Below are positions 2,521 through 53,343 of a stretch of DNA of 64,000 nucleotides, one piece after another. This DNA is from Geminicoccaceae bacterium (GTDB lineage Bacteria; Pseudomonadota; Alphaproteobacteria; Geminicoccales; Geminicoccaceae): positions 23,414 to 87,413 of the forward strand of contig JAWKVR010000008.1 of assembly GCA_041397945.1 (NCBI GenBank), read 5' to 3'. The notes beneath the pieces were generated by a model that saw only the letters and a list, made by a program, of their open reading frames with translations, had not been told where the DNA came from and did not search any database. The position numbers and the translations under genes are program-made. Every line of letters starts with the position of its first letter. Positions within the stretch are counted from its first letter, which is position 1.

Positions 2521-4263
2521 CTAGGTTCTTTGTGCGCGCAGTTCGGCGCGCAGCGCGCTGTGGTCGCGCTTCGGGTCCAGCACGAACGTGTCGGACAGGA
2601 CCACGCCATGCCGGTCGCGGGCGAAGCCTTTGCTGATCTTCTCCGTCGAGCGCGTCCATGGCGACCAGCGCCGGGTCGCGCTCGAGCGGGTCGCCATAGC
2701 CGCCGCCCCGGCCTGGTGGTGGCAGAGGCTGTCGCCGGCCTCGATGTTCCGCGTCAGCTTGCCGGGCACGGCCTCGCATTCCTGTCCGGGTTCAGGATAT
2801 TCTCGGTGAGCGCACCCGGCCCGCCACCGAAGAGGCCGTAGGGCGCGTGCGCCGTGCGGTCGGAGCGGAGCCAGAGCATCGCCCGGGTGCGAGCAGGCGA
2901 TAGGTGCGCGTTAGGCCGAGTTCGCCCGCCACTTGCCGGCGCCGCAGGAATCCTGGCGGGTAGCCAGCCTCGATGCGCACGGGATAGCGCGCTCGAGCGT
3001 CTCGACCGGCAGTGGACATGTTCTGCGCCGGGTTGGTGACCCCTCGATGCCGTCCTGGTCGACGCGCCCGCCCCAGGCGCCGTTGATCATGTCGACGAGG
3101 ATGAAGGGCTCGCCTGTCGCCTTGTCGTAGCCGCCGAGGCAGACGACCGTATTGCCGCCCTCGCCGGCGGCCATGACCTTCGCCGGGACGATCTGGGCGA
3201 GGCAGCCGAGCATGGTGTCGACGATGCGATAGCCGGTGAGTGCTCGAGCAGCGACGGCGGCGGGCAGACGCGGGTTCAGCATCGAGCCCGGGGGCGCCTT
3301 GACGTCGATGCAGCGAAAGACGCCGGCATTGTTGGGGGCGTCGGAATCCATCACACAGCGCACGCTGAGATAGCTCGCCGACTTGACGAAGGAGAGGGTC
3401 GAGTTGATGGCCCCCTTCACCTGGGGCGCGCTGCCCTCGAAATCGACCTCGAGATGGCCGCCCTTGACCGTGATGGTCGCCTTGATCGGGATCGGCGCCT
3501 CGCTGAACCCGTCGCCGTCGATGTGGTCGGTGAAGCTGTAGGTGCCGTCCGGCCAGGCCTCGATCTCGCGCCGGGTCATGGTCTCGGCGTAGTCGAGCAG
3601 ACCCTCGATGTAGCTCTCGACCGTGGCGGCACCGTAGCGCTCGAAAAGGCGCAGGAACTGCCGCTCGCCCATCCGGCAGGTGGCGTATTGCGAGAGCAGG
3701 TCGCCGATCACGAGGTCCGGCACGCGGACGTTCTTCTCGAACAGGCGAAAGAGCGTCTTGTTCGGCTCGCCCCGCTCGTAGAGCTTGAGCGGCGGGACGC
3801 GGAAGCCCTCCTGGAAGATCTCGGTCGAATCCGAGGCGTTCGAGCCCGGCACCCGCCCGCCCATGTCGCAATGATGGGCGACGACGACGGTGAAGCCCTG
3901 CAGCCGGTCCTGAAAGAAGACCGGCTTGAACATGAAGATGTCCGGGAGATGCATGCCGCCCTCGTAAGGGTCGTTCATGATCACCACGTCGCCCGGGGCG
4001 AAATCATTGCCGAACGCGGCCTGCACCGCCGCGATGGCGTCCGGCACCGCCCCCAGGTGCAGGGCCACGGTCTTCGCCTGGGCGACGATGCGGCCATGGC
4101 GGTCGCAGAGCGTCGTCGAGTAGTCCAGCACCTCGCGGACGATGTGCGAGCGGGCCGTGCGCATCACGTTGTAGGCCATCTCGTCGACGATGGTGTCGAA
4201 GGCGTTCTTGATCACCGCGAAGGTGATCGGGTCGGCGAATGGCGAGGCGTCGCCCGTGGTCAT
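2521..4263 (-). pseudogene. hyuB: Hydantoinase B / N-methylhydantoinase B (oxoprolinase family), C-terminal third multiply frameshifted
   Basis: MTTGDASPFADPITFAVIKNAFDTIVDEMAYNVMRTARSHIVREVLDYSTTLCDRHGRIVAQ...MNDPYEGGMHLPDIFMFKPVFF is continuous from 4263 to about 3060. The remainder (VTNPAQNMST, VRIEAGY, GGGYGDPLERDPALVAMDALDGKISKGFARDRHGVVL) is scattered over other frames (ORFs 2792-3871, 2489-2779, 2521-2769). The ATG overlaps the hyuA stop (ATGA). Confidence 0.8.
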
Positions 4264-6369
4264 GCCCGGCCCTCCAGCTCGATGCGCAGATTGCCCGCCT
4301 CGTCCGCCCGCACCACGGCACCGGGCGGGATGACCGCGGTCGTGTCCAGGCTCTCGACGATCAGCGGCCCCCTGGCCTCCGCCGGCAAGGCCGAGCGGTC
4401 GATGACCGGGGTCGCAATGAAGCCCGATTCGCGCGCGAACATCACCTGACGCTCCGAAGCAACGTTCGTGCCACCGGTGGCGCTGGTGCGGTAGCTCGTG
4501 AAGTCGAGCTTGCCGGCGCGGTGGCCGCGCCCGACGACGCGCACCGCCACGACCTCGACCCGGTCCCGGGCGCGATACTCGTAGACCCGCTCGTAGGCTT
4601 CGAGGAAGCGCTCGCGCAAGGGGGCCGCGAAGCCCGCCTCGATCGTGCCGTCGACGGTGATGCCGAGCTCGGTGTCCTGGTTCTCGAAGCGAAGATCGAC
4701 CTGCCGCTCGATCGCCATCTGGTCGGCGGTGAAGCCCTCCTCGGCCAGCGCCGCCCGGGCCTCGGCCTCGAGCCGGTCGAGCGCCGCCCGGAGCCGCGGC
4801 GCCAAAGCTTCGTCGAGCGGTGCGGGCAGGGGCTCGACGAGCTGGCGCTCGATGTCGCCCGCCAGCATGCCGGCGGCGGTGAAGACGCCGGCGAGGTTGG
4901 GCATGAGGACGTGGCGGATGCCGAGCATGGCGGCCAGGTCGCAGGCATGGACCGGGCCGCTGCCGCCGAAGGCGACGAGCGTGAAGTCGCGCGGGTCGAC
5001 CCCGCGCTCGACGGTCACCGCCCGGATGGCACGGGCCATGTTGAGATTGGCGATCTCGCGCACGCCCAGCGCCGCCGCGGCGGCGTCGACGCCGAGCGGG
5101 GCGGCGACATGGGTGGTGATCGCCGCATGGGAGAGGCTGGCGTCGATGGCGAGCGTGCCGCCGGCGAGCTCCTTCGGGTTGAGGTAGCCGAGCACCACGT
5201 TGGCATCGGTCACCGTGGCCTGGCTGCCGCCCTTGCCGTAGCAGGCGGGGCCGGGCTCCGCACCGGCCGAGCGTGGCCCCATGAATGAGCCCGCCCGCAT
5301 CGACCCGGGCGATCGAGCCCGCCCCGGCGCCCACCTCGGCGATGTCGATGGTGGGGGCGCGCATGAGGAAGCCGCCGGCCTTGATGAAGCGGCTCGGCGT
5401 CGAGATGCCGGCGCGGAACTCGTACTCGTTGGTGCGCGAGATGCGCCCGCCCTCGATCAGCGCCGCCTTCGCCGTGGTGCCGCCCATGTCGAAGACGATG
5501 AGATCGTCGATCCGCCCGGCCGTGCCGAGCCGGGCAGCACCGTGACACCGGCGGCCGGGCCGGAGGAGATGAAGAGCACGGGCTGCTCCTGCGCCACGGC
5601 GGCGCGGACGAGGCCGCCGCTCGAGCTGACGACGAGAAGCGGCGCCGCTATGCCGAGCGCTTCGAGCCCGGCGGCCAGCCTCGCCAGATAGCCCCGCATG
5701 ACCGGCAGGACATAGGCGTTGACCACGGCCGTGCTGGTCCGCTCGTACTCCTTGGCCTCGGGCTGCAGGGCGGCGGAAAGCGTGACCTCGAAATCCGGGA
5801 ATGTGCGCCGTCAGGAGCTCGCCGACACGTCGCTCGTGGGTGCCGTTGCGGTAGCTGCTGATGAAGCAGACCGCGACCGAGGTGATGCCCAGCGCCTGCA
5901 GCCGCCGGCCGGCCTCCAGCACCTCCGCGTCGACGAGCGGTGTGAGCACCGCCCCGTCGGCGGCGACCCGCTCGGTCACCTCGAGCCGGGCGCGCCGCGG
6001 CACCAGGGGCTCGGGCTTGGTCCAGGCGAGATCGAACATCTCGGGCGTGCGCACCCGGCCGATCTCGAGGATGTCGCGAAACCCCTTGGTGGTGATCAGC
6101 CCGGTCGGCGCCCCGGTGCGCTCGAGGAGCGTGTTCGAGCCGATGGTCGTGCCATGCAGGACTTCGACCACCTGCCCGCCATCGACGCCGGCCTCGGCCA
6201 TGATCGAGCGAATCCCGTCGAGCACGGCGGCCTCGGGCGCCGAGCCGGTCGAGGAGACCTTGGCGGTCAGCACCTCGCCGTCCCCCTTGCTCAGCACGAG
6301 GTCGGTGAAGGTGCCGCCGATATCCGCGGCGATCCTGACCGTCCGATCGCCCGGTCCCGCCAAGCCCAT
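4260..6369 (-). pseudogene. hyuA: Hydantoinase A / N-methylhydantoinase A, at least 3 frameshifts
   Basis: VRIAADIGGTFTDLVLSKGDGEVLTAKVSST...ITTKGFRDILEIGR (ORF 2911-6378 frame). VNAYVLPVMRGYLARLAAGLEALGIAAPLLVVSSSGG (ORF 5457-5726). IVFDMGGTTAKAALIEGG. C-terminal 346 aa in ORF 4260-5300. Likely start MGLAG at 6369, with SD AGGGA 8 nt upstream. Confidence 0.8.
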
Positions 6370-7143: not shown

Positions 7144-7878
7144 ATGTCCACACTCGCCTTGCAACCGCCGGCTGCTGAGCGGAACAGGGTTGTCGGCCCG
7201 GCGCTGCTGCTCTGCGCGCATGGTGCCCGCGGCGTGGCCGGTGCCGCCGCCCGGCACGCGGGCGTGCTGCGGCGGCAGGCCCGCTTTGCCGCGGTCGAGG
7301 CCTGTGCCTTGCATGGTGCCCCGAGGCTGGAGTCGGTGCTCGCCCGGATGGCGCCGGGGCCGCTCACCGTGCTGCCCTTCATGATGGCCGAAGGCTACAC
7401 GCTGCAGGTGCTCGAGGGCCGGCTGCGCGCCGCCCGGCCCGACGCCCGCCTGGCCCCGGCCCTGGGCTCCCATGTGGGGATCGCCGATCTGCTCGTGGCG
7501 CGGGCGCTCAAGGGCCTGCGCGCCCATGGCCGCGCGCCGCACGAGACCGCGCTGCTGCTCGTCGGCCACGGCACCACGCGGCACCCGGATTCCGCCCTGA
7601 CGGCCAAGCGCCACGCGGCCGTGATCAGGGGGCGGGGTGTCTTCGCCGAGGTGGGCGTGGCCTTTCTCGACGAGGCGCCGGCAGTGGCGGAGGCCGTGGC
7701 CCGGTTGGCCGCACCCTTCATCGCCGGGGTCGGCTTTCTCACCGATGCCGGCCAGCACGGTGCCGGCGACGTGGCGCGGCTCATGGCCGAAACCGACCGT
7801 GCCGGCGTCTATTTCGGCCCGATCGGCCCCGACCCGGCGCTCTTGCCGCTGATCGTCGAGGCGGCGACCCTCCGGTAG
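7144..7878 (+). CDS. cbiX: CbiX / sirohydrochlorin chelatase-like protein
   Basis: 244-aa ORF. Two CbiX-like halves: ALLLCAHGARG...VLPFMMAEGY and ALLLVGHGTTRHPDS...GVGFLTDAGQHGAGD. Confidence 0.75.
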   Translation: MSTLALQPPAAERNRVVGPALLLCAHGARGVAGAAARHAGVLRRQARFAAVEACALHGAPRLESVLARMAPGPLTVLPFMMAEGYTLQVLEGRLRAARPDARLAPALGSHVGIADLLVARALKGLRAHGRAPHETALLLVGHGTTRHPDSALTAKRHAAVIRGRGVFAEVGVAFLDEAPAVAEAVARLAAPFIAGVGFLTDAGQHGAGDVARLMAETDRAGVYFGPIGPDPALLPLIVEAATLR

Positions 7879-34835: not shown

Positions 34836-34850
34836 GCAGCCCTCGCAATT

Positions 34851-34874
34851 TCAGAATTTCTGATTATCTGATAA
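34851..34874. promoter_or_regulatory. Two abutting perfect palindromes, TCAGAA-T-TTCTGA and TTATC-T-GATAA, upstream of the antitoxin gene (candidate TA operator)
   Basis: 34851-34863 and 34864-34874, checked by hand. This is the only AT-rich patch in the dctM-vapB spacer, about 32 nt before the ATG at 34906. Confidence 0.55.
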
Positions 34875-34905
34875 TCGAACGCGCCACCGCCCGCCGAGGC
34901 CCGCC

Positions 34906-38540: not shown

Positions 38541-38583
38541 GCGGCGGTTGGGCGAGAGAACTGAGTTCCCCTCGAACCCTCCG
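38541..38583 (+). repeat. Copy 1 (degenerate) of a roughly 45-nt hairpin element (...GGTTGGGCGAGAGAACTGAGTTCCCCTCGAACCCTCC)
   Basis: Aligns by eye with 44563-44610 and 45470-45520. It sits where high-G+C coding sequence gives way to a low-G+C stretch with no gene. Confidence 0.6.
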
Positions 38584-44082: not shown

Positions 44083-44589
44083 ATGACCGAAGCACGAGAG
44101 GACGGCAACTGGCGCAACAACGGCGTGCGGATCGTCAAGTCGTCGGAGCTGGACTTCAACACCGCACAGACTCCGGGCATGACCCGCGCCGCCGTTATCA
44201 ACATGGCCAAGGTGGGCGCCAGCAAGCTCTGGGCCGGCACCGTCGGCGTCGGAAATCCGAAACGCCAAGACCGGCGCCCACCACCACGGCCACCCTCGGA
44301 AAGCACCATCAGCAGTCGTCATGGCTGCGCCTGTACTGCGCTGGGGCGAACGCCTCGAAGCCTGCGGCCGAGGCCGACCCCGGCGACTTCATCTTCGTGC
44401 CGCCCTACGTCCCCCACCAGGAGATCAACGCCCTCGCCGACGAGCCGCTCGAATGCATCCTGATCCGCAGCGACCAGGAGCCCGTCGTCGTCAACCTCGG
44501 GACATCGAGCCGGCTACGAGAGGCCTGAGGAAGTCCGCTGGATCGACCCGAACCATCCGAAGAACGGGTGGCTACGACGGGGGAACTGA
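44083..44589 (+). pseudogene. Cupin-domain protein, frameshifted; 3' end uncertain (44528 as written, 44589 if aligned with the paralogous remnant)
   Basis: MTEAREDGNWRNNGVRIVKSSELDFNTAQTPGMTRAAVINMAKVGASKLWAGTV (ORF 44083-44463), then PGDFIFVPPYVPHQEINALADEPLECILIRSDQEPVVVNL (ORF 43980-44528). The conserved tail ...GWLRRGN-TGA places the stop in the loop of the 44577-44599 hairpin. Confidence 0.7.
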
Positions 44590-44599
44590 GTTCCCCCGT
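44577..44599 (+). repeat. Copy 2 of the hairpin element: ACGGGGGAAC-TGA-GTTCCCCCGT (10-bp perfect stem, 3-nt loop)
   Basis: Base pairing checked by hand. Embedded in a roughly 125-nt segment (44485-44610) that recurs at 45395-45520. Confidence 0.7.
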
Positions 44600-45289
44600 G
44601 CCCCTCCGGTCTCGCTTGAGAATCGTGCTGGCTGGTGCCGGTCAGGACCTACGATCGGAAGTCCTGGCCTGCGGCGAAGGGAAAGGTTACCGCGGCGAAC
44701 GAACGGGCCTGCCGGCGGCGGCTGCGGCCTGGTCGGGGGCCTTGCTCGCCATAGGCTGGAGCGACGCCCGGCCTGGACGGCCCGCCCGTGGTGCGAGGGC
44801 TTCGTCGGTGCACCTATCTGGTCGACAACCTTGACGGTGATGGATCGGTCGACTCGCGCAGCCTCGTCGTCCCCGCCGCCGATGGCACCTTCCTCTTCGT
44901 CGACTCCAACCAGGCCGGGTTGGCAGGCAGCTTCAACCCGTTCACCGACGCCGCCGGAAGCTGGTCCTGCCGCCGCATCGGCTTGAGGAGCGTGGCCGAG
45001 GCGGTCGTCCTCGACTTCACCCTCCCGCGCGAAGGCGACGCGCAACCAATGCCCGCCTCGACTATTTCGGCATGACGGTCGACCGGCGGGTGCCATCGAG
45101 GGCCAGGCGACCCTCCGCTTCTTCCGCTCGACGCTTCTGACCCGCCCACGCACCCCCCAACACCGCGACGCCCCTACCGCTTCCAGGGCCAGCGCATCAC
45201 CCCCAGTCTCCTCCAGCGGCCCGGGTAGTCGAGCCTGCAATAACCCCGGCGGGCGGGGCGACAGTAGGAACCAGTTGTATCCCCCGAGC

Positions 45290-45520
45290 GGTTGGCGACC
45301 GGGCGTTGCCCCACGTCCTGCACCAGCAGATGAACCTCGCCGGCGCCAGAAGCGCCTGAACGTGCGCTGCCGTTCCCGCTAAAGCGATCAGGAACTCGTC
45401 GTCGTCAACCTAGACATCGAGCCGGCCGAGGAGGTCGAGGAGGTCCGCTGGGCTTTTCCAACCGAACCACCCGAATGGGTGAGGGGCCACGGCGGGGGAA
45501 GTAAGTTCCCCGTGTCCCCT
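45290..45520 (+). pseudogene. Degenerate duplicate of the cupin gene's 3' half plus hairpin element copy 3 (GGGGAA-GTAAG-TTCCCC at 45495-45511)
   Basis: ...PHVLHQQMNLAG...ELVVVNLDIEPAEEVEEVRW...RRGK-TAA parallels ...PHQEINALAD...EPVVVNL...VRWIDPNHPKNGWLRRGN-TGA of the upstream cupin. My by-eye nucleotide alignment is about four-fifths identical over the last ~125 nt. Confidence 0.65.
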
Positions 45521-48272: not shown

Positions 48273-48926
48273 TCAACCCGCCCCATTCCGCTCCCAGAAA
48301 TCCTCGATCGCCGCGGCCGCCTCACGGTCGATCGCCGCGCTCGCCTGTCGCCCGGCCGATGACGACATCCTCAGTACCGCCGCCGAAGCGCACCCTCCAT
48401 GTTGGCGGGGTTGGCGATGGCGTCGCATTGGTGGTCGGCGAAGCTGGTGATCGAGCCCTGGACGAGCGTGGGCCGGTCGGGCGGCGAGGGCTTGGCGAAG
48501 AGGGTCCGGTCCGCGTCGTCATAGGCCACGACCACGGCCTCGACCGGACCCCGGTGGGTGCGGCAGGCGGCCACGACTGGCCCGGCCAGCTCGGCCTTGT
48601 CGATCGGCGGGCCGATGCGGTCGGCGAAGATGCCGCCGGCGATGAAGGGCAGGGCCAGCCGCCGGCAGCCACGCGACGCGGCGAGGGCGAAGGCGTTCGC
48701 GATCGACGCCTCGACCGAGGCCCGGTAGGCTTGTGCCGGGTCGGTCCCGACGGTCATCGAGCCCGAGGCCGCATGGGCGATGCCCTTGATCCCCTGCGCC
48801 TGGGAGCCACCCTGCCCCGGTCCACAACGCCGCCCTTAGCGGCACCAGCATGCTGGCGCCCGAAGATCTCGGCCTGCGGCCGGAAGCACATGTGACCTGC
48901 TCCGTCGCGACATACCCCATCGGCAT
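48273..48926 (-). pseudogene. Macro-domain protein remnant: one macro domain (N-half degraded) followed by the first ~45 aa of a second macro domain, then truncated
   Basis: SD GGTGGAGGGG then ATG at 48926. GIKGIAHAASGSMTVGTDPAQAYRASVEASIANAFALAASRGCRRLALPFIAGGIFADRIGP...VEAVVVAYDDADRTLF (macro C-half). Then TLVQGSITSFADHQCDAIANPANMEGAL and, after a frame change, FGGGTEDVVIGRATGE (macro N-half motifs GDIT..DAIVNAAN..GGGV). Confidence 0.6.
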
Positions 48927-48983
48927 CCCCTCCACCCGCTGCGTCCGCCCGGCGGCCCGAAAACGAACCCGGGCACTCCGGGA

Positions 48984-49119
48984 TTGTCGCAGAATCTGCG
49001 ACAACGAACCCGAGCTTGTCGCATCTGATGCGACAAACACCACCCGGTTGTCGCATCAGATGCGACTGCTGTCGCAGATTCTGCGACTCTACTGGGGCCA
49101 GAGTCGCATCTGATGCGAC
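48984..49119. repeat. Array of five perfect palindromes with shared arms GTCGCA/TGCGAC, two core variants, alternating orientation
   Basis: 48984-49004 TTGTCGCAG-AAT-CTGCGACAA. 49016-49036 TTGTCGCAT-CTG-ATGCGACAA. 49048-49066 TTGTCGCAT-CAG-ATGCGAC. 49071-49087 GTCGCAG-ATT-CTGCGAC. 49103-49119 GTCGCAT-CTG-ATGCGAC. Confidence 0.85.
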
Positions 49120-49319
49120 AGACGGCGGTCACGCGAAACGAACCCAGGGAATCGACGCCGAACCCACCGAATCGCTTGGCCGAGCCGGTTTCGGTTCGTT
49201 CGTCGTCAGGAAGCCGCAAAGCGCCTGGCTTTTCCTCGCCCCGGACCCCGCCGCCCCCTGTTTTGCCGAAGGAACCCGCCGGCCTCTGACGGGCCGCCCG
49301 AGCTAGGCTGGGAATCCTA

Positions 49320-50343
49320 TCACGCTGCGATCTCGATCCGCCGTCGGCCTTCGGCGGCCGAGCGAGCAGGGCGTCGATCAGCCGGTGGACGCAGCGCCTC
49401 CCGGGCGGTGACCCGGGGCTCGCGGCCCTCGTCCAGGGCGCTGGCGGAAGTCGGGTGATGACCGCCTTGTGCCGCCTCGGGCTGACGCCGGTGAAGTCGT
49501 CTTCGGCCGATGCCGCCGGCCTCGCCCGTGGTCCGGCTCCGGCCGTCGAGGAAATCGCGGGTGAGCTGGCCGCCGTCGAGCAGGGCGACACCAGCCCGCC
49601 AGCACGAGCGAGCTCGGCGCGGCCCGGATGGAAGGTGGCAGGTCGCCATCACGGCACCCAGCGCCCCGTTGGCGAAGGCGATGCCGCCGCCGACGAAGTC
49701 CTCGCCCTCCATCCGGTGCATGGCCGAGGTGCCACCCATGGCCTGCACCGCCGCCGCCGGGCCGGTGAGGCTGAGCATCAGGTCGAGGCTGTGGATCGCC
49801 TGGGTGACGAGGACCCCGCCGCTGTCGCGCGCCAGCGCGCGCCGCGCCCGGGCACGTCGTAATAGCCTCTGCGGTCGCCACCTGCGGGCACGCTGAGCTG
49901 CACCGTGGCGAGCGTGCCGAGATCGCCGTCGGCCAGGTGCCGCGAGCTCCGTGGCCGCCTCGGCAAAGCGGTGCTGCAGCACCACCCTGGTGGTCACCTT
50001 CGGCCCCCTCGGTCAGCGCCACCACCCGTTCGCCGCCTCGAGGGTGCGCTCGAAATGGCTTCTCCATGAGGAGGTGCTTGCCCTTGCCCGCGAGTTGCTC
50101 CACCAGCTCCAGCCGCGCGTGCGGCGGCGTCAGGAGCAGCACGGCCGTGACCGCCGGGTCGTCGGCGATGGCGTCCAGCGTCTCGACGACCGGCAGGCCG
50201 TAGCGCCCGGCGAACGCCTCTCGCCGCTCGGCCGAGGGGCTCCAGGCCCGCACCTCGACGCGGTCGCGGAGGTCCTGGAGGCTCTGGGCATGCGGGGCCA
50301 CCGCCATGCCGAGGCCGATGAGGCCGATGGTTCGCCTGGTCAT
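49320..50343 (-). pseudogene. Gfo/Idh/MocA family oxidoreductase, multiply frameshifted
   Basis: MTRRTIGLIGLGMAVAPHAQSLQDLRDRVEVRAWSPSAERREAFAGRYGLPVVETLDAIADDPAVTAVLLLTPPHARLELVEQLAGKGKHLLMEKP (ORF 49378-51660 frame). GGVLVTQAIHSLDLMLSLTGPAAAVQAMGGTSAMHRMEGEDFVGGGIAFANGALG (ORF 49320-49997). Confidence 0.75.
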
Positions 50344-51623
50344 GTCTCTTGCTCTCCCTGCCAGTGAAGGATGTCGATCGGCTGCTCGCGCCCGCGCACG
50401 GCCTGGGTCGGCAAGGCCAGCCAGTGCGCCTGCTCGCCGGCCTCGGCGACGATGGCCGCCGAGGCGACGAGGCCGCCATCGGTCTCGCGGGTGATCTGCT
50501 CGAGCCGGGCCGCGACGTTGACCGTGTCGCCCAGCACCGTGAACTCGAGCCGGCTGCTGTCGCCGACCGCGCCGGCGAAGGCCGGCCCGAAATGGGCGCC
50601 GATGCCGATTCGCACCGGTGCCTCGCCGGCGACGGTCAGCCGGTCGCTCCAGGCGCCGACCCGGCGCAGGAGGTGGCGGGCGCAGTCGAGCGTGCGGCGG
50701 GCGTCGTCGGCATGGCCGTCGGGCACCCCGAAGACCACGATGGCGCTGTCGCCGACGAACTTGTCGACGACGCCCCGATGCGCGACGGCCGCCTTGACCA
50801 CGTGATGCCGGAACGTGCCGAGAAAGGTCGAGAGCTCGGGCGGGGCCAGATGCTCGCTCCGCCGGGTGAAGCCCCTGATGTCGACGATCAGGATGCCGAT
50901 CCGCACGTCCCAGCCGCGCCTGAGCTGCTCGACATCGCCGGCGGCCAGCAGGGCCGCGATCTCCGGCGGCAGGTAGCGGGCGAGGTTGGCGCGCTCCACC
51001 GCCTCCTCGACCGCCCGCTCGAGCAGGGCTTTGCGGCGCGCGGCGGCCAGCACCAGGACGAAGCCGGCAAGGCCCAGGAGCACGATGCGGACGACGGTCG
51101 GCGGCAGGTCGAGCAGGGGCAGGATGCGTTCGAGGTCGCCGTCGTCCGGCAGGGCCGCGAGGAGCAGGGCGAGCCCGCCGACCACCACGACCGCGGCGTA
51201 GCCCTGCAGCCAGGGCCGGTAGTGGAGCGAGCCGAAGACCAGGACCAGGGGCGCCAGCCAGATCGCCGGGAAGACCCAGGCCGTCGAGGCGGGTGCCCCC
51301 GTGTTGAGCACCGTGGAAGCGACGTTGAAGAGGACGAGCGCACAGTCGGCGGTGGTGAAGAGCCAGGGCATCCAGGGCCGGAACCGGCCCGGCCGCGCCG
51401 CCCAGAAGGCGATCAGGCCGTTCGCCGCATAGACGGTCAGCACGACGCTGGCCACCACGAGCTGCCGCCGGGCGGCGGGCGGTGGCAGGTCGACAGTCAG
51501 CAGGGCCACCGAGATGGCGAGCGCCAGGATCGCCACCGCGACCAGCCGGAGGATCGCGAGGAACCGCTCGGCCTCGATCTCGGCCGAAAGGAAGAGCTGC
51601 TCCCTGACACTCCCGATGCTCAC
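50340..51623 (-). CDS. Membrane-anchored class III adenylate/guanylate cyclase
   Basis: Intact 427-aa ORF. Six hydrophobic segments, then GILIVDIRGFTRRSE...VVDKFVGDSAIVVFGVPDG...IGIGAHFGPAFAGAVGDSSRLEFTVLGDTVNVAARLE. The stop overlaps the downstream ATG (ATGA). Confidence 0.88.
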   Translation of the reverse strand: MSIGSVREQLFLSAEIEAERFLAILRLVAVAILALAISVALLTVDLPPPAARRQLVVASVVLTVYAANGLIAFWAARPGRFRPWMPWLFTTADCALVLFNVASTVLNTGAPASTAWVFPAIWLAPLVLVFGSLHYRPWLQGYAAVVVVGGLALLLAALPDDGDLERILPLLDLPPTVVRIVLLGLAGFVLVLAAARRKALLERAVEEAVERANLARYLPPEIAALLAAGDVEQLRRGWDVRIGILIVDIRGFTRRSEHLAPPELSTFLGTFRHHVVKAAVAHRGVVDKFVGDSAIVVFGVPDGHADDARRTLDCARHLLRRVGAWSDRLTVAGEAPVRIGIGAHFGPAFAGAVGDSSRLEFTVLGDTVNVAARLEQITRETDGGLVASAAIVAEAGEQAHWLALPTQAVRGREQPIDILHWQGEQET

Positions 51624-51736: not shown

Positions 51737-53343
51737 ATGGCGGACTACATCATCGTCGGCGGCGGGGCCGCGGGATGCGTGCTTGCCGCCCGGCTCTCCG
51801 AGTTGCCGGAGGCTTCGGTGCTGCTGCTCGAGGCCGGGCCGCCGGACACCGACCGGCTGATCCACATGCCGGTCGGCTTCTACCGGATGACGGACGGCCC
51901 GCTCACCTGGGGCTTCCGCACGGCTCCCCTGGCCCATGCCGACGGTCGCGAGATGGTCTTCCCGCAGGGCCGCGTGCTCGGCGGCGGCAGCTCGATCAAC
52001 GCCATGGTCTACACCCGCGGCAACGCCGCCGACTACGATGCCTGGGCGCACGAGGAGGGTTGCGACGGCTGGGCCTATGCCGACGTGCTGCCCTATTTCA
52101 GGAAGGCCGAGGACAATGAGCGGCTGAGCGATGCCTGGCACGGCACTGGCGGGCCGCTCGGCGTGTCCGACCTCGTGAGCCCGCATCGTCTGAGCCTCGC
52201 CTTCGTCCGCGCCTGCCAGGAGGCCGGCATTCCCTACAACCCCGACTTCAACGGCAGGGACCAGGCCGGGGCCGGGCTCTACCAGGTGACGCAGCGGGGC
52301 GGCCGGCGCTGCTCGACCGCCGTGGGCTACCTGAAGGCGGCGCTGGGCCGCCCGAACCTCGAGCTCGTCACGGATTGTCGGGTCGAGCGGCTGATCGTCG
52401 AGGGCGGGCGGGCGGTCGGCGTCGCCTACAATCGCTACGGGCGGCAGGAGATCGCCCGGGCCGAAAGCGAGGTGATCGTGACCGCCGGTGCGGTCGGCTC
52501 GCCCCGTCTGCTGCTCCTTTCCGGCATCGGCCCGGCCGACGAGCTGCGTGCGCTGGGCATCGACGTCGTCCACGATCTCGAGGGCGTCGGCCGCAACTTC
52601 CACGACCATATCGACGCCTATGTCATCAGCGAGCTCAGCGGCCCGCACTCCTATGACGGTCACACCCGGCCGCATCGCATGCTGATGGCCGAGCTCGAGT
52701 ACAAGCTCTTCGGCAAGGGCCCGGTGACCTCGAACCTGGCCGAGGGCGGGGCCTTCGTGCTGACCGACCCGGCCGAGCCGTCGCCCGACATCCAGCACCA
52801 TTTCCTGCCCGGCGCCGGGCTCGAGGCCGGCGTGCCACCCGTGCCGTCGGGCTATGGCTGCACCTGAACGCCTGCTACCTCCGGCCAAAATCCCGGGGCA
52901 GCATCCGGCTCCGCTCGGCCGACCCGGCCGACGCACCGGTCATCGACCCCAACTACTGGGCCGAGCCCGCCGACATGGCCGCAGCGCTCCGCGGCATCGC
53001 GTCGTCCCGGGAGATCATGGCGCAAGCGGCCTTCGCGCCCTTCGTCAGGCGCGAGCACCTGCCCGGCAAGGAGGTCACCTCGCGCGCCGATCTCGAGGCC
53101 TATGCCCGCCGCTTCGGCAAGACCGACTACCACCCCGTGGGCTCGTGCAGGATGGGCCGGGACGCCCGCGCCGTGGTCGATCCCCAGTGCCGCGTGCGCG
53201 GCATCGAGCGGCTGCGTATCTGCGACAGCTCGATCATGCCCCGTGTCGTCAGCTCCAACACCAACGCCGCCTCGATCATGATCGGCGAGAAGGCGTCCGA
53301 CCTGATCAAGGGCAACCGCCGGGCGGGCGAGGCCGCGGCCTGA
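51737..53343 (+). pseudogene. GMC family oxidoreductase (choline dehydrogenase-like), single frameshift near 52860
   Basis: MADYIIVGGGAAGCVLAARLSE...GRVLGGGSSINAMVYTRG is continuous to 52867. Then LNACYLRPKSRGSIRLRSADP (my translation) and YHPVGSCRMG...ICDSSIMPRVVSSNTNAASIMIGEKASD are in ORF 52975-53343. Confidence 0.85.

Follow-up and report, generated by a model that had tools for sequence, protein, structure and literature searches.

Among sigma-54 enhancers, the NtrC sites have the form TGCACC-N5-GGTGCA, and five of them are found at glnAp2. Plasmid centromere and iteron arrays include F sopC, R1 parC and RK2 oriV, and in type III toxin-antitoxin systems of the toxI type a tandem repeat array lies upstream of the toxin gene. 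Clustered dyads two or three helical turns apart are known for the regulators of the Lrp family, which act cooperatively and wrap DNA (PMC2995911). Here we compare with these systems an array of five dyads found in a 64-kb stretch of DNA from a member of the Geminicoccaceae; this whole stretch is referred to below as the window.

The array forms part of a non-coding module of ~400 bp, made up of an outward promoter, GGGTTCGWTCGTCG repeats and the five dyads, which are numbered from the end distal to the neighboring macro-like gene. The parts of the module and the two genes that enclose it are as follows:

48273..48920, minus strand: macro-like gene, encoding a circularly permuted MacroD/YmdB-type macro-domain protein; split over three frames in the window
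48959..48973, minus strand: single GGGTTCG-type repeat, CCCGGGTTCG, between the array and the macro-like gene; the left flank repeat of the original prediction
48984..49004, no strand: dyad 5, TTGTCGCAGAATCTGCGACAA, a perfect 10+1+10 palindrome on the macro-like gene side, aligning with the fifth site of the relatives
49016..49036, no strand: dyad 4, TTGTCGCATCTGATGCGACAA, a perfect palindrome, aligned with the relatives
49048..49067, no strand: dyad 3, TTGTCGCATCAGATGCGACT, with a perfect 17-bp core, aligned with the relatives
49070..49088, no strand: dyad 2, TGTCGCAGATTCTGCGACT, 21 bp from dyad 3
49102..49120, no strand: dyad 1, AGTCGCATCTGATGCGACA, aligned with the relatives
49135..49207, no strand: cluster of GGGTTCGWTCGTCG-type repeats, at 49136-49149 and 49157-49170, and in the opposite orientation at 49190-49207
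49261..49282, plus strand: conserved block TTTTGCCGAAGGAACCCGCCGG, just 5' of the outward promoter (alignment columns 55-75)
49285..49319, plus strand: remnant of the outward promoter, TCTGAC-N17-CTGGGA in the window, reading into the 3' end of the GFO gene
49320..50343, minus strand: GFO/IDH/MocA oxidoreductase (GFO) gene, whose stop codon abuts the module; split over two frames in the window

Pattern search of the window for GTCGCA-N5-TGCGAC returned five perfect 17-bp palindromes, at 48986-49002, 49018-49034, 49050-49066, 49071-49087 and 49103-49119, and no further match even at one mismatch. Shuffled sequence gave a mean of 0.49 matches, and at least five were reached in 0 of 100 shuffles with one mismatch tolerated. 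The search and the shuffles thus bear out the five GTCGCA/TGCGAC palindromes of the original prediction, and the extension of the arms to TTGTCGCA/TGCGACAA at three sites was likewise confirmed. The degenerate pattern GTYGCR-N5-YGCRAC found the identical five sites, and TGTCGCA-N5-TGCGACA at 3 mismatches added just two matches in the window, a chance-level yield. The octamer ACGAACCC lies at 48963, 49004 and 49138, as had been reported; it occurs 5 times in the window vs 1.6 expected, a count reached in 3 of 100 shuffles. Each dyad is a perfect 8+1+8 palindrome, and the five use only two sequences, one three times and the other twice. These are the two core variants described earlier, but the alternating orientation once ascribed to them is nearly uninformative, since the two orientations of a core differ solely in having A or T as the central base.

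The centers of the dyads in the window are spaced 32, 21, 32 and 32 bp apart, the 21-bp spacing between dyads 2 and 3 being due to the deletion of 11 bp of linker that is present in all relatives. This deletion is a single event in an assembly rich in frameshifts, and several of the window's "pseudogenes" near the array may be assembly frameshifts. The block is non-coding, as first thought: in several frames the dyads would encode V-A-x-x-A-T, yet the 32- and 21-bp spacings and the 11-bp indel suit none of them, no frame is conserved, and a protein-coding reading was rejected.

The cyclase encoded in the window is 100% identical to that of a Geminicoccaceae MAG. The module is present in six further Geminicoccaceae lineages (loci L094-L097, L098, L141, L144, L147 and L150). 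In alignment A2, the five dyads are in register in 7 of 7 lineages, the window included. The relatives share the dyad consensus TGTYGCR-N5-YGCRACA with exactly five dyads per array, and their centers are spaced either 31, 32, 32 and 32 bp or 31, 32, 32 and 31 bp apart in every case. As judged from these alignments, the array is a conserved, vertically inherited intergenic module and not the edge of eroded foreign DNA. Its location between the start of the macro-like gene and the 3' end of the GFO gene had been given correctly, and its placement at the edge of an eroded accessory patch had not. The surroundings of the module are ordinary metabolic genes in conserved synteny, with a GFO-type oxidoreductase gene (intact in the relatives, 340-344 aa) or an S49 peptidase gene on one side and the permuted macro-domain gene on the other. 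Beyond the macro-like gene the window has variable accessory DNA, the relatives also differ downstream of this gene, and the module is intact in two left-flank and three right-flank contexts. The array is absent upstream of ~30 more distantly related macro-like homologues, where the upstream region is short and unrelated. An array of three sites in Parvibaculum, 29 and 32 bp apart and with GGGTTCGCT alongside, was considered as a relative and set aside because homology could not be established.

The macro-like protein matches 5cb3 with E = 9e-14; this circularly permuted macro-domain hydrolase has, to our knowledge, not been described before. The start codon of its gene lies 64 bp from dyad 5 in the window and 65-130 bp from the array in most lineages. 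In L144 the macro-like gene is inverted and the array sits between two convergent 3' ends, and in L098 the gene is apparently absent within 150 bp. Pfam gene lists covering 6-10 kb on each side of the module in L094, L095, L141 and L144 contained no conserved regulator gene beside it.

The relatives carry 4-5 GGGTTCGWTCGTCG-type copies at a 21-bp period, which form a long inverted repeat; TRF reports a period of 21 in L150 and L094, and the five copies in L098 are all direct. The TTTTGCCGAAGGAACCCGCCGG block is found in all lineages but L094, where 29 bp are deleted in comparison with L095. The outward promoter was found by a custom scan with the S. meliloti promoter consensus CTTGAC-N17-CTATAT. 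In the relatives it reads CTTGAC-N17-CTATAA and overlaps the imperfect dyad TAGGCTATAAATCCTA, and both hexamers are degenerate in the window by comparison. A standard promoter/terminator scan, which demands T as the last -10 base, was negative for promoters in three lineages. In the stretch from the array to the start codon, the scans detected no sigma-70-like promoter directed at the macro-like gene; nor did they detect a promoter leading into the array or a terminator. We also considered that copies of the module might flank the macro-like gene as a composite element, and rejected this because the downstream side of the gene is empty of the module in L094, L141 and L150.

All 70 half-sites have G, G and C at positions 2, 5 and 6, respectively, and T makes up 89% at positions 1 and 3. 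Position 4 switches between C and T lineage-wide, giving TGTCGCA in some lineages and TGTTGCA in others, and a symmetric T-to-G / A-to-C change is limited to dyad 5 of L150 and L147. Identity is 43% in the linkers vs 69% in the dyads; linker length is kept while linker sequence diverges. Paired cells make up 89.7% of the dyads vs 80.4% in shuffles, with 0 of 500 shuffles reaching the observed value and slid controls giving 16-52%. Complementarity reaches the pair beside the single central base in 25 of 35 cases, and the intermediates (13 G·T and 8 A·C) show no strand bias. The pair beside the center is unable to form in a hairpin, so the symmetry there speaks for constraint at the level of DNA. 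The invariant G, G and C at positions 2, 5 and 6 point to more than a hairpin-only constraint, under which pairs could co-vary. Dyad symmetry is lowest in L144 (31/45 vs 35-42/45 elsewhere), which we read as decay after uncoupling, as the macro-like gene is inverted there and the array stands at its 3' end. The dyads of the window are the most perfect, though the outward promoter is degenerate there.

Taken together, these features suggest that the array is most likely a platform of helically phased sites to which a sequence-specific protein would bind as several dimers, a reading to which we assign a probability of roughly 45%. The original prediction had offered a binding-site cluster for a dimeric DNA-binding protein among its candidates, and the base invariance, phasing and symmetry make this the best reading. 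A dimeric protein would recognize the half-site T-G-T-Y-G-C-R on duplex DNA, mirrored around an odd center. The sites would lie on one face of the helix, with centers three turns apart and, once in the window, two turns apart, so that several dimers could bind cooperatively and bend or wrap ~150 bp. Together with the 21-bp-phased GGGTTCG repeats and the outward promoter, the dyads would make up a self-contained control unit, whose likeliest output would be transcriptional control of the macro-like gene and/or of the module's own outward promoter. We infer the protein binding, its cooperativity and the identity of the controlled promoter from sequence comparison.

A simple operator for the adjacent gene is disfavored because the module is retained in L144, with its inverted macro-like gene, and in L098, which apparently lacks this gene nearby; each candidate target is lost somewhere while the dyads persist, the outward promoter being degenerate in the window. 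VapB was considered as the binder and rejected. The cores that the array was said to have in common with the vapB palindromes are shared over only 6-7 nt in the window, and in L094 the vapB operator does not track the array cores. The XRE protein, also named as a candidate regulator, is likewise unsupported, being encoded in a patch that the relatives lack.

The array resembles Lrp/AsnC operators in having several dyads per control region, a spacing of two or three turns, ~100-150 bp that would be engaged and linkers whose sequence is unimportant. Its spacings, 31-32 bp and once 21 bp, agree with those described for Lrp-type sites (PMC2995911). In contrast to natural Lrp sites, which are degenerate, the sites of the array are long, G+C-rich and nearly perfect. 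The likeness is architectural only, with no Lrp/AsnC gene found beside the module in the flanking gene lists, although such a regulator may act in trans.

With sigma-54 enhancer sites the array shares 6-5-6 dyads of 17 bp, helical phase and a position ~100 bp or more 5' of a gene. The arm GTCGCA/TGCGAC is identical at acoA-like loci of the Rhodocyclales, where the same dyad class is found 115-140 bp 5' of the sigma-54 promoters in three genomes. The array differs in that no conserved GG-N10-GC (-24/-12) promoter lies between it and the macro-like start codon. We scanned the downstream side of the array for TGGCAC-N5-TTGCW and rejected a sigma-54 promoter there: the best scores were 8-9/12 at non-homologous positions, with none in the window, and the same scan scores 9-11/12 at the Rhodocyclales aco loci.

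If the platform reading is true, the array would offer a clear-cut natural instance of a multi-dimer nucleoprotein platform in helical phase, in which the recognition bases have changed in concert between sister lineages while the number and spacing of sites were kept. It would then be a useful case for the co-evolution of a protein with its site array, and for finding a new regulator in an uncultured alphaproteobacterial family. The module is small and, in the DNA available, single-copy, and is readily testable.

The strongest alternative, although unlikely, is that the array is a self-maintaining palindromic tandem repeat without a specific partner, in which an original 32-bp unit was duplicated five times, is kept palindromic by gene conversion among the units and hairpin-templated repair of one arm from the other, and would act at most as a generic REP/BIME-like mRNA 3'-end stabilizer or pause site. 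TRF reports a 31-32-bp tandem unit in L150 and L094, the linkers of L150 and L147 share CAACCCGAG, the use of only two dyad sequences in the window suggests recent homogenization, and the arm changes are lineage-wide, i.e., concerted. The array is also kept regardless of the state of the macro-like gene or the outward promoter, and its location between convergent 3' ends in L144 is a typical REP position. REP/BIME elements are similarly ~20-bp extragenic palindromes in tandem clusters, lineage-specific, homogeneous within a genome and sometimes placed between convergent genes. The array differs from them in being at one locus in the available DNA, in its fixed five copies and invariant recognition-like bases, and in having no RAYT and no GTAG-type head. 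The ~123 kb of non-redundant Geminicoccaceae DNA contained no array-type dyad outside the array, while a separate dispersed REP-like palindrome, GGGGGAACTSAGTTCCCCC, recurs there with 1-3 copies per locus. Over the 64-kb window and the ~123 kb of clade DNA the array is locus-specific, which within this DNA makes the ordinary REP/BIME family listed among the early candidates less likely; a low-copy family dispersed elsewhere in the genomes may exist. The sole Y1_Tnp gene seen (L144, 3780-4460) has GAGTCTCGTGGACCCGAAAGAG-type repeats on its flanks and not TGTYGCR dyads. A repeat maintained in this way would also have to account for five copies in all seven lineages, for invariance at three positions beyond the needs of pairing, and for linkers that keep their length despite near-random sequence. 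If the array is a self-homogenizing repeat after all, it would be a warning that palindromic, symmetric "covariation" can arise without RNA structure or protein.

More doubtful is a non-transcriptional nucleoprotein site (centromere-like, replication-related or res/att-like) bound by a dedicated, co-evolving protein encoded elsewhere. The adjacent 21-bp and 32-bp phased repeat classes, with 4-5 copies each, resemble plasmid iteron and centromere regions, which also have phased tandem repeats of ~21-22 and 32-43 bp, palindromic units that bind dimers (in the array this is predicted), two repeat classes beside a promoter, and a site/protein specificity that shifts between lineages. The lineage-wide switch of what would be a contacted base suggests a dedicated partner, and the module stays whole in all of its flank contexts. 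Rearrangements in and around the module also fit such a site: the repeats of L098 and L094 are oriented differently, L144 has an inverted macro-like gene, and the window carries one linker motif in reverse orientation. Against this, the array differs from plasmid sites in its chromosomal or chromid synteny with metabolic genes, and the Pfam lists for L094, L095, L141 and L144 show no par, rep, integrase or resolvase gene within 6-10 kb on either side; the lack of a nearby par or rep gene likewise weighs against the centromere or iteron role first suggested. The cumulative GC-skew minimum is near 46 kb, ~3 kb from the array, and the profile flattens afterwards without a clear turn. The plasmid collection held no match to the block, and when it was compared with 24 kb of the window the matches were restricted to conserved ABC-transporter genes, ~15% of the query, plus one short match of at least 99%.

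About equally doubtful is that the module is an autonomous single-copy chromosomal "landing pad" for a dedicated co-evolved DNA-binding protein and not an ordinary operator, working as a regulated outward/antisense promoter device on any gene that it adjoins, or as a centromere, replication or recombination site that has promoted the local inversions. The pad would consist of the outward promoter, five GGGTTCG repeats in 21-bp phase and five dyads in 32-bp phase. The position-4 switch and the dyad 5 change in L150 and L147 also count against the platform reading in its simple form, as selection acting on single sites for one fixed protein would not predict them; they call for co-evolution of a dedicated protein, gene conversion among the sites or hairpin-templated mutation.

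A structured RNA is improbable. It would comprise five hairpins, located either in the macro-like gene's 5' UTR or between cistrons of a cyclase-GFO-macro transcript, and, in its extreme form, would be a repeat-RNA partner of the macro-like protein, akin to a type III antitoxin. Each strand folds much more stably than shuffled sequence (z = -9 to -11), arm changes are compensatory, and as in toxI-type systems about five tandem units (~32 nt here, 32-36 nt in the comparison) lie immediately 5' of, and co-oriented with, a protein gene in most lineages. However, the symmetry covers the bases beside the center, an obligatory loop in a hairpin, a strand bias of G·U over A·C is absent (13 vs 8), and the invariant pairs never co-vary; this evidence favors DNA-level over RNA-level constraint. 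Minimum-energy folds consist of long-range pairing across dyads and differ between the window and L094. Rfam (15) gave no match near a family threshold in the window or three relatives: one tRNA reached its gathering score in the window, and the array region scored at best 24 bits vs thresholds of 80-100. Unlike toxI repeats, the array units are identical in the palindrome alone (linkers 43%), and the scans found neither a promoter into the array nor a terminator. In L144 the array is inverted relative to the gene, and the neighbor is a permuted macro-domain hydrolase of the MacroD/YmdB type and not a ToxN/CptN/TenpN endoribonuclease. The multi-hairpin RNA among the original candidates is disfavored by the symmetry up to the center, the lack of G·U strand bias and the Rfam result.

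The idea that a lost mobile element left the block behind, or that the block is a MITE between the two copies of a target-site duplication, takes its support from the imperfect direct repeat (D5) that brackets the block and from the variable accessory DNA beyond the macro-like gene in the window and relatives, and is highly improbable: an empty-site check on six lineages returned the five-dyad array with the same spacing at the orthologous place every time, the distant macro-like homologues simply have a short unrelated upstream region, and the plasmid collection held no similar DNA. The direct repeat itself was confirmed (family D5, with 83% identity across 18 nt), but it is not a target-site duplication, because it belongs to the GGGTTCG family conserved beside the array at all orthologous loci; CCCGGGTTCG also comes after the last dyad in L094 and L141. 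As far as the comparison of loci goes, the block is not mobile-element debris.

A literature search with the motif strings returned primers and unrelated sequences only, and the viral collection gave two unrelated matches. In the genome collection, two GTCGCA-N5-TGCGAC sites within 34 nt were found at 91 loci, 0 of them from this clade. These include coding palindromes (gut Bacteroidota, Kiritimatiellia and others), GTAG-headed REP families (Verrucomicrobia, Melainabacteria), small plasmids, aco-operon enhancers and a Duganella operator, a mixture which indicates that the dyad is a common type of protein site and not one family. Where it recurs near promoters, as at the aco loci, the dyad class takes up positions typical of bound proteins, in support of the platform reading. 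In the small plasmids, it stands directly before a putative rep gene, as read by eye. In Duganella it lies directly 5' of a ribosome-binding site, beside the gene for a 337-aa protein that appears by eye to be a WYL-type regulator.

Re-inspection of window positions 48959-49149 confirmed the five perfect palindromes GTCGCA-N5-TGCGAC of the original prediction, which start at 48986, 49018, 49050, 49071 and 49103 and extend to TTGTCGCA...TGCGACAA in three of the five sites. The same inspection found the ACGAACCC octamers and the imperfect direct repeat that brackets the block. The two core variants had been described as occurring in both orientations; this part did not stand because each site is a perfect 8+1+8 palindrome, and the supposed orientations differ in the central base alone. 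A search of the 64-kb window with one mismatch allowed returned only these five sites, as did a degenerate pattern, and a 19-mer search at three mismatches added only chance-level matches; shuffles of the window averaged 0.49 matches, with at least five in 0 of 100. Two 5+1+5 palindromes upstream of the vapB-like gene (window 34845-34875; CAGAA-T-TTCTG and TTATC-T-GATAA) share 6-7 nt of the array cores, as had been remarked, but the likeness fails in the related Geminicoccaceae locus L094 (16975-17000), where the first palindrome is asymmetric and neither tracks that locus's array cores.

Using the window's adenylate cyclase gene (50340-51623) as a query, we found a Geminicoccaceae MAG protein that is 100% identical and relatives at 88% and 81% identity on longer contigs. 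Synteny is kept in their loci, which carry, in this order, the cyclase, a GFO/IDH/MocA oxidoreductase (GFO) gene, an intergenic region of ~400 bp, a gene for a macro-like protein of 218-229 aa, and variable genes. The intergenic architecture of the window recurs in every lineage fetched and forms a module whose parts, taken from alignment A2 and read toward the macro-like gene, are as follows.

(a) imperfect AT-rich dyad TAGGATTTATAGCCTA, abutting or overlapping the upstream gene's stop codon
(b) conserved block GGCGGGTTCCTTCGGCAA
(c) GGGTTCGWTCGTCG repeats, four to five copies, period 21 bp
(d) the five palindromes, hereafter dyads
(e) one further CCCGGGTTCG, often present
(f) 65-130 poorly conserved bases, then the macro-like start codon

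On the opposite strand, part (a) together with a conserved block CCGTCAAG reads CTTGAC-N17-CTATAA. In L094, L095, L150 and L144, this agrees at 11 of 12 positions with CTTGAC-N17-CTATAT, which we take to be the promoter consensus of S. meliloti; the variants are CTTGAT...GTATAA in L098, CTTGAC...CTGTAA in L141, and a degenerate TCTGAC...CTGGGA in the window. This promoter faces outward from the array and would read into the upstream gene's 3' end. The 21-bp period of the GGGTTCGWTCGTCG repeats was detected by TRF in L150 and L094; the five copies in L098 are all direct, whereas elsewhere mixed orientations form a long inverted repeat. The octamer ACGAACCC noted originally corresponds to this repeat on the complementary strand.

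Dyad arms in the window and in related Geminicoccaceae lineages
Window: TGTCGCA...TGCGACA
L094 type (L094-L097, L103, L104): TGTCGCR...YGCGACA
L141 type (L141-L143): TGTCGCR...YGCGACA
L098: TGTTGCA...TGCAACA
L144 type (L144-L146): TGTTGCA...TGCAACA
L150: TGTTGCA...TGCAACA
L147 type (L147-L149): TGTTGCA...TGCAACA

The dyads are spaced 31, 32, 32, 32 or 31, 32, 32, 31 bp centre to centre in all relatives and 32, 21, 32, 32 bp in the window, where the 21-bp spacing arises because 11 bp of one linker are absent; 32 and 21 bp correspond approximately to whole helical turns (3.0 and 2.0). This deletion excepted, linker length changes by at most 1 bp across lineages, and pairwise identity is 43% in the linkers against 69% in the dyads and 64% in the rest of the region. 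The half-site consensus (n=70 half-sites) is T(89%) G(100%) T(89%) Y(100%) G(100%) C(100%) R(99%) T(70%). Complementary cells make up 89.7% in the dyads versus 80.4% in column shuffles (observed value reached in 0 of 500), and slid controls gave 16-52%; changes on both sides were seen in 18 of the pairs within dyads. Three pairs are invariant and never co-vary, though a stem would permit it, and the pair adjoining the single central base, which could not form in a hairpin, is complementary in 25 of 35. Non-complementary cells comprise 13 G·T and 8 A·C, similar counts, and therefore neither strand is favoured. The invariant pairs, the symmetry to the centre and the lack of a G·T/A·C bias argue for a constraint on duplex DNA, as would be read by a dimeric protein, and not on a hairpin. 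At position 7 (A or G), only 66% of cells are complementary, about the expectation from independent arm variation.

Our preferred reading, held tentatively at a probability of about 0.45, is that the array serves as a helically phased platform on which several dimers of a putative sequence-specific DNA-binding protein would sit, within a compact control module for flanking transcription. Such a module would control the macro-like gene, its own outward promoter, or both. The closest architectures are enhancer-binding-protein site arrays and the phased operator clusters of DNA-wrapping regulators, which are spaced at two or three turns (PMC2995911); in membership tests for named families, the array fell into none. 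Its interest lies in strictly conserved number and phase with recognition bases changed in concert, and in a module that is autonomous across contexts and easily testable.

A palindromic tandem repeat that homogenises itself without a specific partner is an unlikely alternative to a protein-bound platform. Independent compensatory events are few, namely one C/T switch at position 4 common to whole lineages, one symmetric T-to-G / A-to-C change in dyad 5 (nearest the macro-like gene) of L150 and L147, and core-type changes. Symmetry of this kind could come from hairpin-templated mutation or from gene conversion between the five units. 

On its left, the module borders on the stop codon of GFO in the window and in L094, L141 and L098, and on that of an S49 peptidase gene in L150 and L144. 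On its right, the macro-like gene starts in five lineages. In L144, the macro-like gene is inverted and the dyads lie 33 bp past the stop, between two convergent genes. In L098, the dispersed REP-like palindrome described below and a convergent gene end follow the dyads within 70 bp, and no macro-like start was found within 150 bp of them, up to the contig end. Dyad complementarity is lowest in L144 (31/45), normal in L098 (40/45) and highest in the window (42/44), the lineage with a degenerate outward promoter. Thus, for each candidate target there is one lineage that lacks it or has it displaced and yet retains the dyads; this complicates a simple operator model. Neither a sigma-70-like promoter toward the macro-like gene nor a conserved sigma-54 promoter was found, and no conserved regulator gene lies within 6-10 kb of the module. 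A role outside transcription, as a nucleoprotein site whose dedicated protein co-evolves with it, is rather unlikely.

The multi-hairpin RNA proposed originally draws support from the folding of both strands, which is much stronger than that of shuffles (z = -9 to -11), but the minimum-energy folds pair different dyads and differ between the window and L094, and the window and relatives have no Rfam match. Since the duplex-level symmetry, the invariant pairs without co-variation, the absence of strand bias and the L144 inversion also speak against it, a functional RNA is distinctly unlikely. A mobile-element relic or MITE is very improbable, as no empty site was found at the orthologous loci of any clade lineage. 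Palindromes are absent upstream of distant macro-like homologues (≤64% identity; ~30 metagenome loci), whose upstream regions are short and unrelated. Together with the missing empty site, this indicates that the array is an invention of one Geminicoccaceae subclade and vertically inherited, and not the debris of a lost element as first suggested. In a Parvibaculum MAG (L067 1540-1617), three dyads, GCTGCATCAGATGCGAC, GTCGCATTAAATGCGAC and GTCGCATTAGATGCGAC, 29 and 32 bp apart and adjoined by GGGTTCGCT, have the 3' end of a CHASE2 adenylate cyclase gene on one side and the start of an enolase-superfamily gene on the other; these may be related to the Geminicoccaceae array.

The suggestion of a dispersed REP/BIME family was not borne out, as no dyad occurs outside the array in the 64-kb window or in ~123 kb of non-redundant clade DNA. 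Another palindrome, GGGGGAACTSAGTTCCCCCGC, served as an internal control: it occurs at scattered places in this Geminicoccaceae DNA and was detected repeatedly, and therefore a REP-like dyad family would be detectable at this sampling depth. With the window and ~123 kb as the sample, a low-copy dispersed dyad family is possible. This REP-like palindrome, as (C)GCGGGGGAACTSAGTTCCCCCGC, is intergenic and often separates convergent genes.

Copies of (C)GCGGGGGAACTSAGTTCCCCCGC
Window: 44576-44609; weaker copies at 38550-38583 and 45492-45520
L094: 14156-14211 and 15456-15482
L141: 9359-9393 and 10286-10328
L144: 4735-4771
L098: about 7520-7555

L144 also carries a Y1 transposase (3380-4580; PF01797, HUH motif; RAYT/IS200-like) 3' of GFO, between GFO and ADH, adjoined by a partial duplicate of its own 3' end. 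Inverted copies of GAGTCTCGTGGACCCGAAAGAG, differing from both the dyads and the REP-like palindrome, flank it, and the flank is partly tandem-duplicated. About five tandem GTGTCCCGACTTTTC copies follow a GGTTAA motif just 3' of the macro-like gene in L094 (13440-13560); GGTTAA also lies 3' of this gene in L150, and GGTTAAAAGAGTC, which resembles GTGTCCCGACTTTTC, adjoins the L144 transposase.

The family of the macro-like protein is small, with 37 clusters among 5.8 billion proteins. In MacroD/YmdB-type macro domains, the N-terminal NAAN...GGG motif region is matched by the C-terminal third of this protein and the remainder of the fold by its first two-thirds (alignment A1); 5cb3 is matched at E = 9e-14 in two stretches. 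Because these stretches are swapped in order, the protein is a circular permutation of this domain. In L141, the C-terminal third recurs in part at 7453-7722, ~780 bp downstream of the intact gene. Three window genes have broken frames.

48273-48920 (-): macro-like gene, over three frames
49320-50343 (-): GFO gene, over two frames
51737-53343: GMC oxidoreductase gene, seemingly split into two GC3-supported ORFs versus one 535-aa gene in relatives

All three are intact in close relatives, which suggests indel errors of a long-read MAG assembly and not true erosion. The gene earlier called a macro-domain pseudogene thus does encode a macro domain, in permuted form, but its pseudogene status is doubtful; the same caveat applies to the "eroded accessory patch" and to the 11-bp linker deletion.

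Scanning a genome collection for two dyads within 34 nt yielded 91 heterogeneous loci. In three Rhodocyclales genomes (L038 3879-4140; L019 5476-5740; L070 4380-4661), clear sigma-54 promoters (TGGCACCAAGCTTGCA, TGGCATCGCCCTTGCG, TGGCATCGCTCTTGCG) front acoA-like (E1 alpha) genes, and two to three GTCGCA-N5-TGCGAC dyads at 21-bp spacing are found 115-140 bp upstream of these promoters. This is a classic enhancer layout, likely serving an AcoR-type activator. In Duganella/Pseudoduganella (L001 4460-4560; also L028 and L032), five half-sites, alternately TGTCGCA and TGCGACA at a 12-bp period, immediately precede a ribosome-binding site and a 5'-nucleotidase-like gene. On their other side is an operon with a 337-aa product resembling a WYL-type regulator; this product and a small FtsK-gamma-like protein are encoded divergently (all three proteins read by eye). 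Small, probably circular, mobilisable Acetobacteraceae/Paracoccus plasmids (L088, L002, L013, L044, L048, L049, L057, L061, L068, L069, L085) carry two GTCGCA-N5-TGCGAC dyads each, as does a similar Microbacterium contig (L034). In L088, a 3179-bp contig with repeated ends, the dyads immediately precede the start of a 202-aa ORF that by eye is Rep-like with a winged helix and adjoins a MobA-type relaxase-like ORF. The Rhodocyclales, Duganella and plasmid positions indicate that the dyad class is a common type of protein-binding site, and the Geminicoccaceae binder is not thereby named. Palindromes that are perfect over as much as 27 bp (CAGTTGTCGCAAATTTTGCGACAACTG) were found in gut Bacteroidales, Kiritimatiellia, Victivallales, Treponema and Fibrobacteria (L021, L023, L042, L056, L065, L072, L079, L080, L082, L083 and others); these appear to lie inside coding sequence and would encode repeated T-V-A-K-F-A-T-T peptides, in proteins that may resemble RhuM-like proteins.
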